Below are positions 3,588 to 15,464 of a stretch of DNA of 31,573 nucleotides, piece by piece. Under the pieces are notes generated by a model that saw only the letters and a list, made by a program, of their open reading frames with translations, did not search any database and was not told the DNA's origin. A program made the translations under genes and the position numbers. This DNA comes from a virus (Duplodnaviria; Heunggongvirae; Uroviricota; Caudoviricetes). The DNA is taken from IMG/VR virus record IMGVR_UViG_2551306526_000005; one strand, given 5' to 3'. The first letter of the stretch is position 1; every line of letters begins with the position of its first letter.

Positions 3588-3859
3588 GCATTCGTATTGA
3601 AATTGGCGAACGTTATGTGGTTACCAGTGACAGCTTCCAGTTTATTCTCCACGAGAAAAAGAGAGCGGAAAGCGGTAAAAACGCCGGTCAGGAGTGGCTG
3701 GCGGTGGTTGGTTATTACCCGAAATTAAGCCAGCTCGTTTCCGGTCTGATGCATCACGATATTCTGACCGGAAGCGCAAAGTCTTTTGCTGATTTAAACG
3801 CGCAGGTTGAGCAACTCAGCAAGCGTTGTTCTGAGGCTTTTGGCTCATATGGCCGTTAA
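3584..3859 (+). CDS. Hypothetical protein immediately upstream of A (91 aa)
   Basis: ORF overlapping the start of A by a few codons; operon context only. Confidence 0.45.
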   Translation: MSIRIEIGERYVVTSDSFQFILHEKKRAESGKNAGQEWLAVVGYYPKLSQLVSGLMHHDILTGSAKSFADLNAQVEQLSKRCSEAFGSYGR

Positions 3860-6134
3860 AGCCTCCGGGCGTTTTGTCCCTCCGTCAGCATTTGCCGCAG
3901 GCACCGGTAAGGCGTTTACCGGTGCTTATGCATGGAACGCGCCACGCGAGGCTGTAGGGCGCGAAAGACCTCTTACACGTGACGAGATGCGTCAGGTGCA
4001 AGGTGTTTTATCCACGATTAATCGCCTGCCTTATTTTTTGCGCTCGCTGTTTACTTCACGCTATGACTACATCCGGCGCAATAAAAGCCCGGTGCACGGA
4101 TTTTATTTTCTCACATCCACTTTTCAGCGTCGTTTATGGCCGCGCATTGAGCGTGTGAATCAGCGCCATGAAATGAACACCGACGCGTCGTTGCTGTTTC
4201 TGGCAGAGCGTGACCACTATGCGCGCCTGCCTGGAATGAATGACAAGGAGCTGAAAAAGTTTGCCGCCCGTATTTCATCGCAGCTTTTCATGATGTATGA
4301 GGAACTCAGCGATGCCTGGGTGGATGCGCATGGCGAAAAAGAATCGCTGTTTACGGATGAGGCGCAGGCTCACCTCTATGGTCATGTTGCTGGCGCTGCA
4401 CGTGCTTTCAATATTTCCCCTCTCTACTGGAAAAAATACCGTAAAGGGCAGATGACCACGAGGCAGGCATATTCTGCCATTGCCCGTCTGTTTAACGATG
4501 AGTGGTGGACTCATCAGCTTAAAGGCCAGCGTATGCGCTGGCATGAAGCGTTACTGATAGCTGTCGGGGAGGTCAATAAAGACCGTTCTCCTTATGCCAG
4601 TAAACACGCCATTCGTGATGTGCGTGCGCGCCGCCAGGCAAATCTGGAATTTCTTAAATCGTGTGACCTTGAAAACAGGGAAACCGGCGAGCGCATCGAC
4701 CTTATCAGTAAGGTGATGGGCAGTATTTCTAATCCTGAAATTCGCCGGATGGAGCTGATGAACACCATTGCCGGTATTGAGCGTTACGCCGCCGCAGAGG
4801 GTGATGTGGGGATGTTTATCACGCTGACCGCGCCGTCAAAGTATCACCCGACTCGTCAGGTCAGAAAAGGCGAAAGTAAAACCGTTCAGCTTAATCACGG
4901 CTGGAACGATGAGGCATTTAATCCAAAGGATGCGCAGCGTTATCTCTGCCGCATCTGGAGCCTGATGCGCACGGCATTCAAGGATAATGATTTACAGGTC
5001 TACGGTTTGCGTGTCGTCGAGCCACACCACGACGGAACGCCGCACTGGCATATGATGCTTTTTTGTAATCCACGCCAGCGTAACCAGATTATCGAAATCA
5101 TGCGTCGCTACGCGCTCAAAGAGGATGGAGACGAAAGAGGAGCTGCGCGAAACCGTTTTCAGGCAAAGCACCTTAACCGGGGCGGTGCTGCGGGATATAT
5201 CGCGAAATACATTTCAAAAAATATCGACGGCTATGCACTGGATGGTCAGCTCGATAACGATACCGGTAAGCCGCTTAAAGATACTGCCGCGGCTGTTACC
5301 GCATGGGCGTCAACGTGGCGCATCCCGCAATTTAAAACGGTTGGCCTGCCGACAATGGGGGCTTACCGTGAACTACGCAAATTGCCGCGCGGCGTCAGCA
5401 TTGCTGATGAGTTTGACGAGCGCGTCGAGGCTGCACGCGCCGCCGCAGACAGTGGTGATTTTGCGTTGTATATCAGCGCGCAGGGTGGGGCAAATGTCCC
5501 GCGCGATTGTCAGACTGTCAGGGTCGCCCGTAGCCCGTCGGATGACGTTAACGAGTACGAGGAAGAGGTCGAGAGAGTGGTCGGCATTTACGCGCCGCAT
5601 CTCGGCGCGCGTCATATTCATATCACCAGAACGACGGACTGGCGCATTGTTCCGAAAGTGCCGGTCGTTGAGCCTTTGACTTTAAAAAGCGGCATCGCCG
5701 CGCCTCGGAGTCCTGTCAATAACTGTGGAAAGCTCACCGGTGGTGATGCTTCGTTACTGGCTCCCACACCTTCTGAGCACGCCGCAGCAGTGCTTAATCT
5801 GGTTGATAACGGTGTTATTGAATGGAATGAACCGGAGGTCGTGAGGGCGCTCAGGGGCGCATTAAAACACGACCTGAAAACACCAAACCGTCAGCAAAGA
5901 AACGGAAGCCCGTTAAAACCGCATGAAATAGCGCCATCGGCCAGACTGACCCGGTCGGAACGAATGCAAATTACCCGTATCCGCGTTGACCTTGCTCAGA
6001 ACGGTATCAGGCCGCAGCGATGGGAGCTTGAGGCGCTGGCGCGTGGGGCAACCGTAAATTATGGCGGGAAAAAATTCACGTATCCGGTCGCTGATGAGTG
6101 GCCGGGATTCTCAACAGTAATGGAGTGGACATGA
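3849..6134 (+). CDS. A: Rolling-circle replication initiator endonuclease (P2 gpA-like)
   Basis: 761 aa from ATG 3849 (MAVKASGRF...), the length I recall for P2 A; HUH-type motif (PHWHMMLF) and tyrosine-containing motif (AAGYIAKYISKNIDGY). Confidence 0.9.
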   Translation: MAVKASGRFVPPSAFAAGTGKAFTGAYAWNAPREAVGRERPLTRDEMRQVQGVLSTINRLPYFLRSLFTSRYDYIRRNKSPVHGFYFLTSTFQRRLWPRIERVNQRHEMNTDASLLFLAERDHYARLPGMNDKELKKFAARISSQLFMMYEELSDAWVDAHGEKESLFTDEAQAHLYGHVAGAARAFNISPLYWKKYRKGQMTTRQAYSAIARLFNDEWWTHQLKGQRMRWHEALLIAVGEVNKDRSPYASKHAIRDVRARRQANLEFLKSCDLENRETGERIDLISKVMGSISNPEIRRMELMNTIAGIERYAAAEGDVGMFITLTAPSKYHPTRQVRKGESKTVQLNHGWNDEAFNPKDAQRYLCRIWSLMRTAFKDNDLQVYGLRVVEPHHDGTPHWHMMLFCNPRQRNQIIEIMRRYALKEDGDERGAARNRFQAKHLNRGGAAGYIAKYISKNIDGYALDGQLDNDTGKPLKDTAAAVTAWASTWRIPQFKTVGLPTMGAYRELRKLPRGVSIADEFDERVEAARAAADSGDFALYISAQGGANVPRDCQTVRVARSPSDDVNEYEEEVERVVGIYAPHLGARHIHITRTTDWRIVPKVPVVEPLTLKSGIAAPRSPVNNCGKLTGGDASLLAPTPSEHAAAVLNLVDNGVIEWNEPEVVRALRGALKHDLKTPNRQQRNGSPLKPHEIAPSARLTRSERMQITRIRVDLAQNGIRPQRWELEALARGATVNYGGKKFTYPVADEWPGFSTVMEWT

Positions 6135-6586
6135 TGGCAAAAATTCACGAGGTAAAGCTGCACGCAAAATATTTCGACCTTGTGCTGGAAGGAAAGAAAC
6201 GCGCAGAGTTTCGGAAAAATGACCGTAATTATGAGCGTGGGGACACGTTGATTTTGCATGAATGGGGGCAGGGTGCGTATACGGGGCGAAAGGTTGAAGC
6301 CCGGATAACAGATGTTACTGACCTGTCAGACTGGCTGGAAGATTATGTCTTGCTAAGTATTGAGCGGCTTAATACAGGCGCATGTGAGATTGTGAACTGG
6401 AAAGAACTTAGTGAGCGTGGTCTGGTATTCAGAATTAATCATGAAATTATGCATCAGCTTGGCCTTGCTGTTATGTATGAACCAGATACGGGGATGTCTG
6501 GTGGGGCAATGGTTGCCACGGATGGAGCATGGAACTATTCAGATGAACAGATGGAGCGTGCACAGCAAAACGGGTGGCTTGGATAA
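6131..6586 (+). CDS. ASCH/DUF3850-like domain protein with uncharacterised C-terminal extension
   Basis: Start overlaps A stop (ATGATGG); N-terminal KIHEVKLHAKYFDLVLEGKKRAEFRKNDRNYERGDTL resembles DUF3850/ASCH fold proteins; C-terminal roughly 70 aa unassigned. Confidence 0.5.
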   Translation: MMAKIHEVKLHAKYFDLVLEGKKRAEFRKNDRNYERGDTLILHEWGQGAYTGRKVEARITDVTDLSDWLEDYVLLSIERLNTGACEIVNWKELSERGLVFRINHEIMHQLGLAVMYEPDTGMSGGAMVATDGAWNYSDEQMERAQQNGWLG

Positions 6587-7015
6587 TGCACAGAATACCA
6601 GGCGAGATACCGCACCATAAAACTAAAAATATCAAGCTGATGGCTATTGTTCAGCGTTTACAGCGGATTATGGTCAACGAAAATCTGACGCCCGATGAGC
6701 TGGTCGGGTGTGCCGAAATAGTCCGGGATAATTACGGGCGGCTTAACTATATCGGTCAGTCCAGAGTTGCGCCACCACCACGCAGACGATAGAGAACGCC
6801 GCCAGTCGTGAAACTTGTTTTCAGGGCTGGCGGGGTTGAACAACGAGCGAAGCGAGGCGTTAGTTGACAGACATATTTTTACTGCGTTGGTGCCGGTTTT
6901 TAACGGTTGAAAGGAGTTAGGTTGGAGAGCTAACAACTTACAAATATTCAAAAGTAAGCATCCTGTTGCTAACATGAGGTCGATTTTTTATGTGGATGAT
7001 GCAAAAAGGATAGCT

Positions 7016-7747
7016 ATGGATACTATAATCGCTTTTCTATCACTCGCTTTTTTCGTTGCTTTCTTCATCGGGTTAATCAAGCCATCACTGGTGCGAATGC
7101 CAAACCGCAAACGTGCAAGTGCGGTTTATCTCGGAGGAGGTTTTGTATTGAGCATAATTGGTTCAATACTCTATCCAACAGAAAAAAGCCAGCCAGTTGC
7201 TAAAACTGAAACATCAACCGTTGCAGAACATAAAGTCCAAAAAACATTCGAATATGGTGAAAAAACACTCAAGGAATATCGGAACGAGTCAAAGAAAACA
7301 CGACACGATATTGTGAATAGTTACATTGATTTTAAGGAAGTTCCAGCCACCGCGTCAGATGCGTTTTATGCCTGCATGAGTGAGTATACATTTACCAAAG
7401 ATGATGAGTTGAAACTCGGTGATGTTCTTGGGTGGTGCTTTAATGATTATGAAAATGACCCGAATTCACTAAACAATAAAATCAATCTTGATACATTTCA
7501 GAGTAATTTTAGTGGTTGGGATGGTTCTTATCGTCCATTGGAAAAACTAATTAAAGATAATATGAACGATGATTCATCTTATAAACATGTGTCAACGGTA
7601 TATCATCTGGTTTTGAATAAAGACCCGCATGCCATTGTGAAAACCACGTTTCGCGGAACTAATGCTTATGGAGGAGTGGTGAAACAGACGATTGCTGCGC
7701 GTGTTGATATAAAAACTGGTAAGGTGATATCAATCATAGATAATTAA
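7016..7747 (+). CDS. Uncharacterised membrane-anchored protein, two N-terminal TM helices plus about 190-aa soluble domain (cargo)
   Basis: Start at ATG 7016 with AAGGA RBS; hydrophobic segments IIAFLSLAFFVAFFIGLI and VYLGGGFVLSIIGSILY; AT-rich codon usage unlike flanking phage core genes. Confidence 0.6.
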   Translation: MDTIIAFLSLAFFVAFFIGLIKPSLVRMPNRKRASAVYLGGGFVLSIIGSILYPTEKSQPVAKTETSTVAEHKVQKTFEYGEKTLKEYRNESKKTRHDIVNSYIDFKEVPATASDAFYACMSEYTFTKDDELKLGDVLGWCFNDYENDPNSLNNKINLDTFQSNFSGWDGSYRPLEKLIKDNMNDDSSYKHVSTVYHLVLNKDPHAIVKTTFRGTNAYGGVVKQTIAARVDIKTGKVISIIDN

Positions 7748-7756
7748 TATCTTACA

Positions 7757-7797
7757 ATGCCGACGCTGAATATTTAATTGGGTGTCGGCATTTTTTT
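7757..7797 (+). terminator. Rho-independent terminator after the 243-aa cargo gene
   Basis: ATGCCGAC...GTCGGCAT 8-bp stem followed by a T7 run, 10 nt after the stop codon. Confidence 0.5.
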
Positions 7798-7857
7798 GAC
7801 TATTAGAGCGGCAGAACCGAGATTTGTTACGTATGAGATTAGCACTGCGAGAATGTT

Positions 7858-8640
7858 ATGAAAGTTATAAACCAACTTAAGAAGTTTGATAAGAAAAGAA
7901 CGCCAGATGATGGCCGTATTAGTTTGTTATATGAAAACGCGATTAAGTATGATATGTACTCTGTATATATTAAAGATAAAAATGATACAGAATACCTCTT
8001 TGACTGTTTGGTTGATGGGAAGATAAAGGCTTTTAAATGGGATGATGAGGAGCGTAGATTTCATATAAGTTCATACTTGGATATTTCTGAGCTTACGCCT
8101 GATTCTTTTTTTGGTGTTTATTACTACCGTGCGCATGAGTTGCGATTTAACTCTTTAAATGATTTAACCTTTTTAAGGGAGTTGTTCTTTAGAGTAAAAT
8201 CTAATTATGAAAATATAAAGTTTAGTCGTGAAAAATATATTTATCGACAGCAAAAAAAAGAAATAACTGATGTGATGTTTGTTCTCTCAGCGATTATAAG
8301 AATGTATCGTGAACGGGATGCTGAAACTGTGTTTAGTGAGTTTTCAATAATGACCGAAGTCGCTGGTAGTTTATGGGTATACCATGACGATAAAAACAGG
8401 ATGCGTAAAGAGCTTCGTTTATGCCTGAATTCTCTTGTTCAGAATGGAGATCTTGTTGAAACAAGTAGTGGATTCAGGCTAACAGGAAAGGCACTGAACA
8501 CAATATCTACATTCAATAAAGATGAGGTGCGGTACAGAGAGAATTTGAGTACTCAGAAGAAAATGTTTTGGGCTACTTTTTTCGCAGCAGTCGGCGGCGT
8601 AGGAAGTATGATTGCAGCTATAATAGGGCTTCTAAAATGA
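7858..8640 (+). CDS. Uncharacterised tail-anchored protein, about 235-aa soluble domain plus C-terminal TM helix (cargo)
   Basis: 260-aa ORF; C-terminal hydrophobic helix FWATFFAAVGGVGSMIAAIIGLL; AT-rich; separated from the upstream cargo gene by a terminator. Confidence 0.6.
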   Translation: MKVINQLKKFDKKRTPDDGRISLLYENAIKYDMYSVYIKDKNDTEYLFDCLVDGKIKAFKWDDEERRFHISSYLDISELTPDSFFGVYYYRAHELRFNSLNDLTFLRELFFRVKSNYENIKFSREKYIYRQQKKEITDVMFVLSAIIRMYRERDAETVFSEFSIMTEVAGSLWVYHDDKNRMRKELRLCLNSLVQNGDLVETSSGFRLTGKALNTISTFNKDEVRYRENLSTQKKMFWATFFAAVGGVGSMIAAIIGLLK

Positions 8641-8800
8641 GCCAACAACATCGTATGATGAAGTATTGAGTGAAAAGCATTCTTTATATGCATTATTTTG
8701 CATGCAACATATGCTATACATTTTAGCTATGAATTGTCAGACGTGGCAGTACTTCTGTATGGTAATGCAACTGCATTAAAACCGCCCCATGAAGCGGGCG

Positions 8801-8819
8801 GGCGAGGCGGGGAAAGCAC
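8801..8819. other. cos cohesive-end site (P2-type 19-nt sequence)
   Basis: GGCGAGGCGGGGAAAGCAC matches the P2 cohesive-end sequence as I recall it; located between cargo and Q, as in P2. Confidence 0.55.
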
Positions 8820-8988: not shown

Positions 8989-10023
8989 TCAGCCGTTGTC
9001 AGTGTCCAGTGAGTAGTTTTTAAAGCGGATGACCTCCTGACCGAGCCAGCCGTTTATTTCCCGAATCCTGTCCTGTAACGGGATAAGTTCATTGCGGACA
9101 AAGACCTTTGCCACTTTCTCAATATCACCCAGCGACCCGACGTTCTCCGGCTTGCCGCCCATCAACTGAAAGGGGATGCGGTGTGCGTCCAGCAGGTCAG
9201 CGGCGCTGGCTTTTTTGATATTAAAAAAATCGTCCTTCGTCGCCACTTCACTGAGCGGGATAATTTTAATGCCGTCGGCTTTCCCCTGTGGGGCATAGAG
9301 AAACAGGTTTTTAAAGTTATTGCGGCCTTTCGACTTCACCATGTTTTCGCGAAGCATTTCGATATCGTTGCGGTCCTGCACGGCATCGGTGACGTACATG
9401 ATGTATCCGGCATGCGCGCCGTTTTCGTAATACTTGCGGCGGAACAGCGTGGCCGACTCATTCAGCCAGGCAGAGTTAAGGGCGCTGAGATATTCCGGCA
9501 GGCCGTACAGCTCCTGATTAATATCCGGCTCCAGCAGGTGAAACACGGAACCGGGCGCGAAAGGTGTCGGCTCGTTGAAGGACGGCACCCACCAGTAAAC
9601 ATCCTCCTCCACGCCACGGCGGGTATATTTTGCCGGTGAGGTTTCCAGTCTGATGATCTTACCGGTGGTGCTGTAACGCTTTTCCAGAAACGCATTACCG
9701 AACACCAGAAAATCCAGCACAAAGCGGCTGAAATCCTGTTGCGAAAGCCACGGATGCGGGATAAATGTCGAGGCCAGAATATTGCGTTTAACGTAAATCG
9801 GTGAGCTGTGATGCACGGCAGCACGCAGGCTTTTCGCCAGACCGGTAAAGCTGACCGGCGGCTCATACCATCTGCCGTTACTGATGCACTCGACGTAATC
9901 CAGAATGTCACGGCGGTCGAGTACCGGCACCGGCTCACCAAAGGTGAATGCCTCCATTTTCGGGGCGCTGGCGGTCATTTTTTTTGCCGCAGGTTGCGGT
10001 GTTTTCCCTTTTTTCTTGCTCAT
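8989..10023 (-). CDS. Q: Portal protein (P2 gpQ-like)
   Basis: 344 aa, the length I recall for P2 Q; divergent from O, adjacent to terminase P. Confidence 0.9.
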   Translation of the reverse strand: MSKKKGKTPQPAAKKMTASAPKMEAFTFGEPVPVLDRRDILDYVECISNGRWYEPPVSFTGLAKSLRAAVHHSSPIYVKRNILASTFIPHPWLSQQDFSRFVLDFLVFGNAFLEKRYSTTGKIIRLETSPAKYTRRGVEEDVYWWVPSFNEPTPFAPGSVFHLLEPDINQELYGLPEYLSALNSAWLNESATLFRRKYYENGAHAGYIMYVTDAVQDRNDIEMLRENMVKSKGRNNFKNLFLYAPQGKADGIKIIPLSEVATKDDFFNIKKASAADLLDAHRIPFQLMGGKPENVGSLGDIEKVAKVFVRNELIPLQDRIREINGWLGQEVIRFKNYSLDTDNG

Positions 10024-14702: not shown

Positions 14703-14801
14703 CAACCGAATGCGCCCCGCGCCAGGGCGGCACGCCGGTCAGTGTGGGTGAATCACCTGACACTGTACCGGCGTCCACCGCCCGACTTTTCAGAGGTAGT
14801 C

Positions 14802-15464
14802 ATGATGACGCTGATTATTCCGCGAAAGGAGGCTCCCGTATCCGGTGAGGGTACGGTGGTCATCCCGCAACCGGCAGGCGACGAGCCGGTGATTAAAAAC
14901 ACGTTCTTTTTTCCCGATATCGACCCGAAGCGCGTCCGGGAACGTATGCGCCTTGAGCAGACCGTCGCCCCTGCCCGTCTGCGTGAGGCCATCAAGTCAG
15001 GCATGGCTGAAACGAATGCGGAGCTGTACGAGTACCGCGAACAGAAAATTGCCGCCGGTTTTACGCGTCTGGCTGACGTCCCGGCGGACGATATCGACGG
15101 TGAAAGCATCAAAGTTTTTTACTACGAGCGTGCCGTGTGTGCGATGGCGACCGCGTCGCTTTATGAGCGTTATCGCGGCGTGGATGCCAGTGCGAAAGGC
15201 GACAAGAAGGCTGACAGCATTGACAGCACCATTGATGAACTGTGGCGGGATATGCGCTGGGCGGTGGCGCGTATCCAGGACAAACGGAGTAAACACCATG
15301 AAGAAATTATCCCTTTCACTGATGCTGAACGTGTCGCTGGCGCTGATGCTGGCACTGTCCCTGATTTACCCGCAGAGCGTGGCCGTCAATTTTGTCGCTG
15401 CCTGGGCGATTCTGGCGACGGTTATCTGTGTGGTTGCCGGTGGTGTCGGCGTGTATGCCACTGA
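14802..15464 (+). CDS. L: Head completion/stabilisation protein (P2 gpL-like) with aberrant read-through C-terminus
   Basis: First roughly 165 aa look like a normal protein; no stop where a 169-aa L would end (about 15310); frame continues about 50 codons of Cys/Arg-rich sequence across the lysA start. Confidence 0.7.
   Translation: MMTLIIPRKEAPVSGEGTVVIPQPAGDEPVIKNTFFFPDIDPKRVRERMRLEQTVAPARLREAIKSGMAETNAELYEYREQKIAAGFTRLADVPADDIDGESIKVFYYERAVCAMATASLYERYRGVDASAKGDKKADSIDSTIDELWRDMRWAVARIQDKRSKHHEEIIPFTDAERVAGADAGTVPDLPAERGRQFCRCLGDSGDGYLCGCRWCRRVCH

Follow-up and report, generated by a model that had tools for sequence, protein, structure and literature searches.

We analyzed a 31,573-nucleotide stretch of viral DNA (IMG/VR record IMGVR_UViG_2551306526_000005, referred to here as the window), which is a complete P2-like prophage whose gene order agreed between the RefSeq annotation and the list of open reading frames (ORFs). 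Between replication gene A and the cos site, at the position where P2 carries tin and old, the window has two genes for membrane proteins, named G1 and G2 here. An earlier note made from the sequence of the window had proposed that these genes form a membrane-associated pair, acting as a novel abortive-infection or superinfection-exclusion system. After comparing the homology, anatomy, modularity and genomic contexts of both genes across related prophages, we favor a different interpretation: the island probably consists of two independent single-gene cargo modules in a cos-proximal hotspot, rather than a two-component system, and G1 is most likely an exclusion protein. The "pair" is an accident of layout. 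The two genes and the sequence between them are as follows.

Positions 7016 to 7747, plus strand: G1, 243 amino acids (aa), G+C content 0.378 (ORF 6974/7016-7747).
Positions 7756 to 7797 (approximate), plus strand: hairpin followed by a run of seven T residues between G1 and G2, -22.8 kcal/mol, z = -5.4 relative to shuffled sequences, resembling an intrinsic terminator.
Positions 7858 to 8640, plus strand: G2, 260 aa, G+C content 0.349 (ORF).

The description of the region given in the earlier note was largely borne out. Both AT-rich ORFs were found in the ORF list with the lengths and base composition given above, and both belong to conserved families; the start of G1 at 7016 was backed by its PHROG profile and by RefSeq. 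The hairpin with its T-run was also confirmed. The two N-terminal transmembrane (TM) helices attributed to G1 and the C-terminal tail anchor attributed to G2 were recovered from hydrophobicity, from AlphaFold2 models and from the Phobius calls in Table S5B of Rousset et al. 2022.

To describe how the two genes are associated, we used a set of 167 related loci, taken from IMG/VR and from GTDB genomes and also from assemblies and complete E. coli genomes, which gave 100 non-identical A-to-Q intervals. The content of this interval varied across related prophages, with many architectures, as the earlier note had anticipated. G1 was always the first cargo gene, preceded by orfS where the backbone is of the P2 type and by Tum/DinI where it is of the 186 type. 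What followed G1 on its 3' side took 22 different states in 84 non-redundant loci: G2 in 21, an unrelated protein of about 220 aa with two TM helices in 19, nothing in 10, and other genes in the rest, including several for unrelated proteins of 300 to 430 aa. Even G1 alleles that were at least 97% identical were followed by G2, by the 220-aa protein, by a 326-aa protein or by no partner. G2 lacked G1 in 15 of 36 IMG/VR loci and followed it in the other 21. G2 copies at 90% identity occurred both with and without G1. Lone copies of G2 were found directly after A (L058 to L062), after Tum/DinI (L013 and L063), or after a complete type VI retron (L004, L005, L048, L055 and L064, or 5 of 37 non-redundant G2 loci). 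Among complete E. coli genomes, a close copy of G2 was present in 6 and a distant copy in 10 more.

These contexts bear on whether G1 and G2 are the two components of a single membrane system acting in abortive infection or exclusion, with sensing by one partner in the periplasm and action by the other at the cytoplasmic face. In favor of such a system, the two genes are adjacent and co-oriented, and wherever both occur the order is G1 and then G2. The pair also recurs in the P2-type prophages of E. coli and the 186-type prophages of Enterobacter and Klebsiella, with 77% identity for G1 and 55 to 61% for G2, and the pairwise identities of G1 and G2 correlate across the loci that have both (r = 0.71). 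Such a correlation is expected because the genes are inherited together on the same prophage backbone. The other observations argue against it. G1 stands alone in 10 loci and has about 20 other partners, G2 stands alone after A or after a retron, and near-identical alleles of either gene differ in whether, or with what, they are paired. A strong terminator lies between the two genes, and the junctions differ in two lineages: the spacer in the window, with its own hairpin terminator, is unrelated to the Enterobacter spacer. Therefore, the adjacency of G1 and G2 arose, or was rebuilt, separately. The hairpin at 7756 to 7797 was not found in the 186 or Enterobacter loci, where a conserved element of about 70 bp (see below) occupies the same spot. 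Finally, the P2-type arrangement of G1 and G2 is essentially one near-clonal cassette, with at least 97% identity. A two-component system is thus improbable, and the claim of a membrane-associated pair did not survive this comparison.

The view of two separate modules agrees with an existing catalogue. In Table S5B of Rousset et al. 2022, G1 is listed as single-gene system #12 (210 of 18,150 P2 loci, "2 TM") and G2 as single-gene system #68 (62 loci, "1 TM"). The printed sequences are near-identical to those in the window, have no Pfam domain and come from the gpA-gpQ locus by cos, so that there is no difference in kind between these entries and our two genes. Systems #12 and #68 are absent from the cloned and tested set in Table S2 of the same study. 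The novelty claimed in the earlier note was therefore not sustained: G1 is a poorly studied gene of phage 186, and both genes are already catalogued as separate entries.

Two other arrangements were observed in the slot downstream of G1. The protein of about 220 aa (L003:5377-5958, L006:5838-6500 and about 20 other loci) is the commonest alternative occupant; it is an unrelated protein, has two N-terminal TM helices and the conserved motif GGWVSGIATS, gave no Pfam or PADLOC match, and represents a further family of membrane cargo. In Citrobacter braakii (L012:7082-9080), a truncated G1 is followed by a G2 homologue and then by an AAA_15/AAA_21 ATPase gene and a gene for a 188-aa protein. The layout of the last two is like that of PARIS or Gabija, giving three stacked modules in one hotspot.

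We then identified the family of each gene. G1 matched phrog_3403 from end to end (E value of 2.8e-147, profile positions 1 to 243), had 163 homologous clusters, and was found in 33 phage records by a translated search of phage genomes. One of these was coliphage 186, whose Orf97 (NP_052294.1) aligned with G1 over the full length without a gap and with 186 of 243 residues identical (77%; E value of 2e-149). Judging from this alignment, G1 is the orthologue of 186 orf97. Like Orf97, G1 has 243 aa, is encoded between A and cos, and shares a leader upstream of the start codon:

Positions 6955 to 7015, plus strand: G1 leader, homologous to the spacer between tum and orf97 in phage 186, as judged from an alignment that also covered E. 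coli A15 and Enterobacter loci.

In the 186 genome (NC_001317), the order is the LexA-repressed promoter p95, the antirepressor gene tum, the partial terminator t95a, orf97 and the terminator t95b. The GenBank note on orf97 reads "expression from plasmid blocks 186 infection." The two genes differ in their settings. The window has a P2-type backbone, with Cox and the P2 A protein, and lacks tum, p95 and a LexA box; neither tum nor a DinI gene lies between A and G1. The 60 bp located 5' of G1 still align with the 186 tum-orf97 spacer, but the t95a hairpin has degenerated and the complementarity of its arms (CCCCATG/CATGGGG) is gone. G1 thus stands outside a LexA-controlled tum-orf97 operon in the window, whereas its 186-type relatives are part of one. 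Moreover, the two genes are on opposite sides of the 70-bp element: G1 is on its right, within the variable slot, and 186 orf97 is on its left. The earlier note had considered that conservation of the locus across related prophages would speak against a defense cargo; such conservation was found only in part, for G1 in the tum-orf97 SOS operon of 186-type phages, and the content was otherwise variable. Brumby et al. 1996 is said to be the source paper for orf97 in phage 186 and for its p95 SOS operon. That paper (Virology 219:105) is cited in PMC5322425. A search of the literature for the accession numbers or PHROG identifiers returned no match.

The structure of G1 was examined with the help of an AlphaFold2 model, which had a mean predicted local distance difference test (pLDDT) score of 86, exceeding 90 from residue 80 on. 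Two helices (residues 2 to 21 and 31 to 52), matching the hydrophobic stretches at 1 to 28 and 34 to 54, are followed by a disordered linker (57 to 73) and a C-terminal domain made of a helical bundle (85 to 163) and then a helix with a four-stranded sheet (173 to 242). The helical subdomain has an HdeA/HdeB-like chaperone fold. The loop between the first two helices, KPSLVRMPNRKRA, contains five K/R residues and no D/E. Cysteine occurs only twice in G1, as C120 and C141; both residues are in the C-terminal domain and are invariant across 45 homologues with identities down to 53%. In Xenorhabdus relatives, the same C-terminal domain is preceded by a zinc ribbon and one TM helix instead of two TM helices. 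Because of the basic loop, the invariant cysteine pair and this zinc ribbon/single-TM variant, the C-terminal domain is predicted to face the periplasm. Since the TM region is swapped in some distant relatives, the C-terminal domain appears to be a portable functional unit. The distant relatives of G1 (46 to 57% identity; L020, L024, L025, L027, L030 and L031), from Photorhabdus, Xenorhabdus and Morganella, adjoin ogr and tail genes, which places them at the opposite end of P2-like prophages, and only some of them carry the zinc ribbon with one TM helix.

Based on these features, G1 would span the inner membrane with its two TM helices, keep the basic loop in the cytoplasm and expose a C-terminal domain of about 170 aa, capable of forming a disulfide, to the periplasm. 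Its most likely function would be superinfection exclusion of P2/186-type phages at the envelope. Small inner-membrane proteins encoded by phages or prophages, such as T4 Imm, HK97 gp15 and P22 SieA, block genome entry. By analogy with these proteins, G1 may be of a similar kind, given the matching anatomy and the infection block recorded for its orthologue. It probably interferes with genome entry across the inner membrane, a step that we infer. Because G1 is a full-length orthologue of Orf97 in the same position and with a shared leader, it presumably shares the activity recorded for Orf97. Superinfection exclusion, one of the two functions put forward in the earlier note, was thus a reasonable guess as far as G1 is concerned, in view of the GenBank note on its orthologue. 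Taken by itself, the assignment of G1 as an envelope-level exclusion protein has slightly better than an even chance of being correct. In 186, the protein is probably made upon prophage induction and not constitutively, because the gene belongs to the LexA-controlled tum operon. This SOS control suggests that Orf97 would spare the induced cell from superinfection rather than provide standing immunity. In the P2-type prophage studied here, G1 would have entered the variable slot by capture, accompanied by neither tum nor a LexA box.

The same SOS control could also indicate that Orf97/G1 serves the induction or lytic program of the phage itself within the envelope, for example as a chaperone-like protein of the periplasm or in lysis timing, with the infection block being an artifact of overexpression. 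In line with such a role, the 186 gene is SOS induced together with the antirepressor Tum and is not expressed from a lysogenic promoter, in 186-type prophages it behaves as a semi-core gene because it is placed to the left of the variable slot, and its helical subdomain has the chaperone fold mentioned above. However, G1 was present in only 95 of 5,426 complete E. coli genomes, and its family in only 210 of the 18,150 P2 loci of Rousset et al. 2022. It is also dispensable, because P2 itself lacks G1, and it has moved as cargo to hotspots of the P2 type and, in Photorhabdus and Xenorhabdus prophages, to the ogr end. We therefore consider a role in the phage's own program unlikely and retain exclusion as the function of G1.

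G2 matched phrog_7611 with an E value of 1.2e-162. Close-homologue, word-indexed searches returned 30 homologous clusters, and no match was found in 50,697 phage genomes, protein level included. An exhaustive profile search gave 647 clusters (at 50% identity) with E values of up to 1e-3, of which 242 had E values of up to 1e-10. Nearly all of these clusters consist of proteins of 250 to 300 aa, at least one is from a Firmicute, and the named members are all annotated as hypothetical. Pfam scans of 10 distant relatives gave no consistent match. Eight contexts of distant members were sampled, and in all eight the gene was a lone gene in accessory DNA, which argues that G2 is an autonomous accessory gene. 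They included the following contexts.

A P2-like prophage of Klebsiella, with the gene at the Z/fun position.
An HP1-like prophage, with the gene at its end.
Lambdoid moron regions, with HicAB, YafO and Macro genes as neighbors.
The edge of an element like a phage-inducible chromosomal island (PICI).
The end of a temperate T7-like prophage.
An islet beside RelBE.
An island with HEPN_LA2681 and Shedu genes.

The association of G2 with retrons was considered separately, since it could mean that G2 is an accessory or effector of type VI retrons and that the retron has been lost here. Several IMG/VR contigs and 10 complete E. coli genomes have a G2 homologue of 55 to 57% identity directly 3' of HTH_VI and RT_VI genes. 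A type VI retron has been described as comprising a small-protein toxin, a helix-turn-helix antitoxin and a reverse transcriptase (bioRxiv 10.64898/2026.04.27.721009). At L004:3145-5539, the retron comprises a 51-aa ORF, HTH_VI (E value of 2e-31) and RT_VI (E value of 9e-106), all upstream of G2. The retron therefore does not need G2, because the toxin ORF, HTH_VI and RT_VI are all present without it. Most G2 loci have no reverse transcriptase. A role of G2 as a retron accessory was rejected, as the retron is complete without it and only some of the G2 loci show the association; the likelihood of such a role is very small. The type VI retron and the G2 homologue are probably two stacked modules, not one system.

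G2 has one hydrophobic stretch only, at its extreme C terminus (residues 236 to 260). Its AlphaFold2 model (pLDDT of 81, predicted template modeling score of 0.50) shows an N-terminal beta domain of six strands (residues 30 to 97, approximately), a helix of 48 residues, a winged helix at about 161 to 208 and a long helix ending in the TM segment. Residues 161 to 208 matched the winged-helix structural class. A PD-(D/E)xK-like motif in the beta domain was considered and dropped, since the candidate D-x-K position was not conserved in an alignment inspected by eye.

According to these features, G2 would be a separate moron whose beta domain and winged helix are cytoplasmic and tethered to the inner membrane by the C-terminal anchor. 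It may act as a stand-alone anti-phage or exclusion protein, binding nucleic acid or a phage protein at the membrane. SNIPE (PD-lambda-1), a nuclease bound to the membrane, cleaves phage DNA while it is being injected (PMC13190303). A similar logic can be proposed for G2 by analogy, in which a single TM helix would keep putative nucleic-acid-binding domains of one protein at the inner membrane. The two proteins differ in their architecture: SNIPE has an N-terminal TM segment, DUF4041 and a GIY-YIG nuclease, whereas G2 is anchored at its C terminus, combines a beta domain with a winged helix and has no recognizable nuclease. Neither DUF4041 nor GIY-YIG was matched in G2 or in 35 family members by PADLOC or Pfam. 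As any function of G2 is deduced from such features, its identity as an anti-phage gene is possible but has less than an even chance. More speculatively, G2 could be the founder of a widespread class of single-protein defenses that use a cytoplasmic beta domain and winged helix to sense, where injection takes place, either the entering phage DNA or a phage protein; the members of such a class would be tail anchored in the inner membrane, without a recognizable nuclease or pore domain, and encoded as lone morons in diverse elements of Proteobacteria and Firmicutes, among them the A-cos and Z/fun hotspots of P2, lambdoid and T7-like prophages, and PICI-like elements.

The remaining family searches agreed with the earlier note that neither protein belongs to a recognized family. 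No significant Pfam, NCBIfam or PADLOC match was obtained for G1 or G2, Pfam scans of all alignment members gave no consistent match, and no ATPase or TOPRIM match to either protein appeared in Pfam at E values of up to 1. Profile searches against PDB sequences gave only hits with E values of 0.5 or more. For G1, a Foldseek search of BFVD returned only small uncharacterized or "lipoprotein" phage proteins over 60 to 70 residues. With PADLOC there was no match for G1 and none named Old or Tin, the presence of Old/Tin models in the release being unconfirmed and no pairwise comparison having been made; the two matches obtained, of G2 to DruD (E value of 0.018) and of the ASCH protein encoded after A to PDC-M11B (E value of 0.026), were both non-significant.

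Several points weigh against the interpretation that the island holds two independent modules with roles in exclusion or defense. With respect to independence, G2 follows G1 in 21 of 84 non-redundant loci compared with 62 of 18,150 loci overall, far above random pairing, and a facultative functional interaction between the two may exist. We attribute the excess to clonal copies and to orf97 being nearly fixed left of the slot in 186-type prophages, so that any cargo in the slot ends up beside it. As for exclusion by G1, the phenotype of Orf97 comes from a database note only, plasmid overexpression of a membrane protein can block infection nonspecifically, and the searches that were run gave no sequence or fold link to any characterized exclusion protein. 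As for G2, its winged-helix matches are generic, and the status of cargo does not prove a role in defense. Expression signals were also scarce. A consensus sigma-70 scan revealed no promoter upstream of G1 or of G2, and no LexA box (CTGT-N8-ACAG) was present in the region from 6793 to 7015 upstream of G1. Concerning a single transcription unit, a strong terminator-like hairpin lies between the two genes and a consensus promoter was found for neither. An AAGGA Shine-Dalgarno sequence is located 6 nt 5' of the G1 start, and G1, which has the same orientation as the early operon, follows a hairpin without a T-run.

This hairpin is part of the conserved element of about 70 bp, copies of which are listed here.

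Positions 6796 to 6870, plus strand: conserved hairpin-plus-linker element of about 70 bp, -35.2 kcal/mol, z = -5.0, no T-run.
L162:4346-4413, L007:5900-5954, L012:4982-5030 and 5899-5966, and L013:5910-5941: further copies of the element.

The element was found by BLAST in 110 collected sequences. It is located between orfS and G1 in P2-type loci and just 3' of orf97 in 186 and 186-type loci; in one locus it is present on both sides of a truncated G1, and in L013 it is directly 5' of a lone G2. In the window, the homology to P2 stops at its 3' edge (6865). The element has the appearance of a recombination boundary on the left side of the cargo slot, and it may be a recombination site for cassette swapping or an RNA element. 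Rfam recognized no family in either the window or the L004 retron locus. The placement of the element indicates that orf97, a conserved gene of the SOS operon in 186-type phages, became cargo in P2-type phages.

The limits of the island were set by comparison with related phages and genomes, using the flanking features below.

Positions 3807 to 6134: replication gene A, G+C content 0.534.
Positions 6134 to 6586: gene after A, encoding a protein with DUF3850/ASCH and DUF7415 (Pfam E values of 2e-18 and 2e-14).
Positions 6586 to 6792, plus strand: orfS, 68 aa (phrog_11386, E value of 4e-39; RefSeq WP_000554772), the last gene of the P2 backbone before the variable island.
Positions 8801 to 8819, plus strand: P2-type cos 19-mer GGCGAGGCGGGGAAAGCAC, an exact string, at the right edge of the hotspot.
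Positions 8989 to 10023, minus strand: portal gene Q, G+C content 0.532.

The segment from 6587 to 6865 is 96 to 99% identical in P2, Wphi (gp92) and Yersinia P2-like phages. In P2, Wphi and other P2-like phages, the matches were confined to 6587 to 6865 and 8760 to 8800; therefore, the variable or foreign island extends from about 6866 to 8759. The G+C content, 0.508 for the whole window, drops from about 0.53 in A and Q to the values given above for G1 and G2. E. coli APEC O78 (NC_020163.1) was 100% identical to the queried segment, and IHE3034 and four other complete genomes were 99% identical. The left flank was common to 662 E. coli records, and the whole island was present in only 6 of them. 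The same cos 19-mer also occurs in the P4 and P2 cos regions of Table S2A of Rousset et al. 2022. The A-to-Q segment by cos, which holds tin and old in P2, is a documented reservoir of anti-phage genes (PMC9122126). With A, cos and Q as its flanks, and with G1 and G2 between gpA and gpQ in a segment whose content varies among near-identical prophages, the island lies at this recognized defense hotspot, as the earlier note had stated.

Two further observations concern the backbone. The DUF3850/ASCH protein encoded after A has a putative RNA-binding domain, is kept in many P2-type prophages and appears in the arrangements of Table S5A of Rousset et al. 2022. At about 14800 to 15300 (L001:16216-16698), the head completion gene is a truncated pseudogene in RefSeq; the genes annotated next encode a DNZ54_00345-family protein, LysB and LysC, and neither a holin nor an endolysin is annotated in between. 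Part of the lysis cassette of the prophage may have been lost.

Taken together, an anonymous "2 TM hypothetical" protein of about 1 to 2% of E. coli genomes is now tied to orf97 of phage 186, a gene whose exclusion note is 30 years old. The family of G2 is much larger than close-homologue searches suggest (647 versus 30 clusters), making it a reasonable candidate for defense screens. What remains of value in this locus is this large uncharacterized family and the mechanism of Orf97. The locus itself is a small, clear example of the shuffling of hotspot cargo, with a 70-bp hairpin element at the swap point and a semi-core gene of 186-type phages turned into cargo in P2-type phages.

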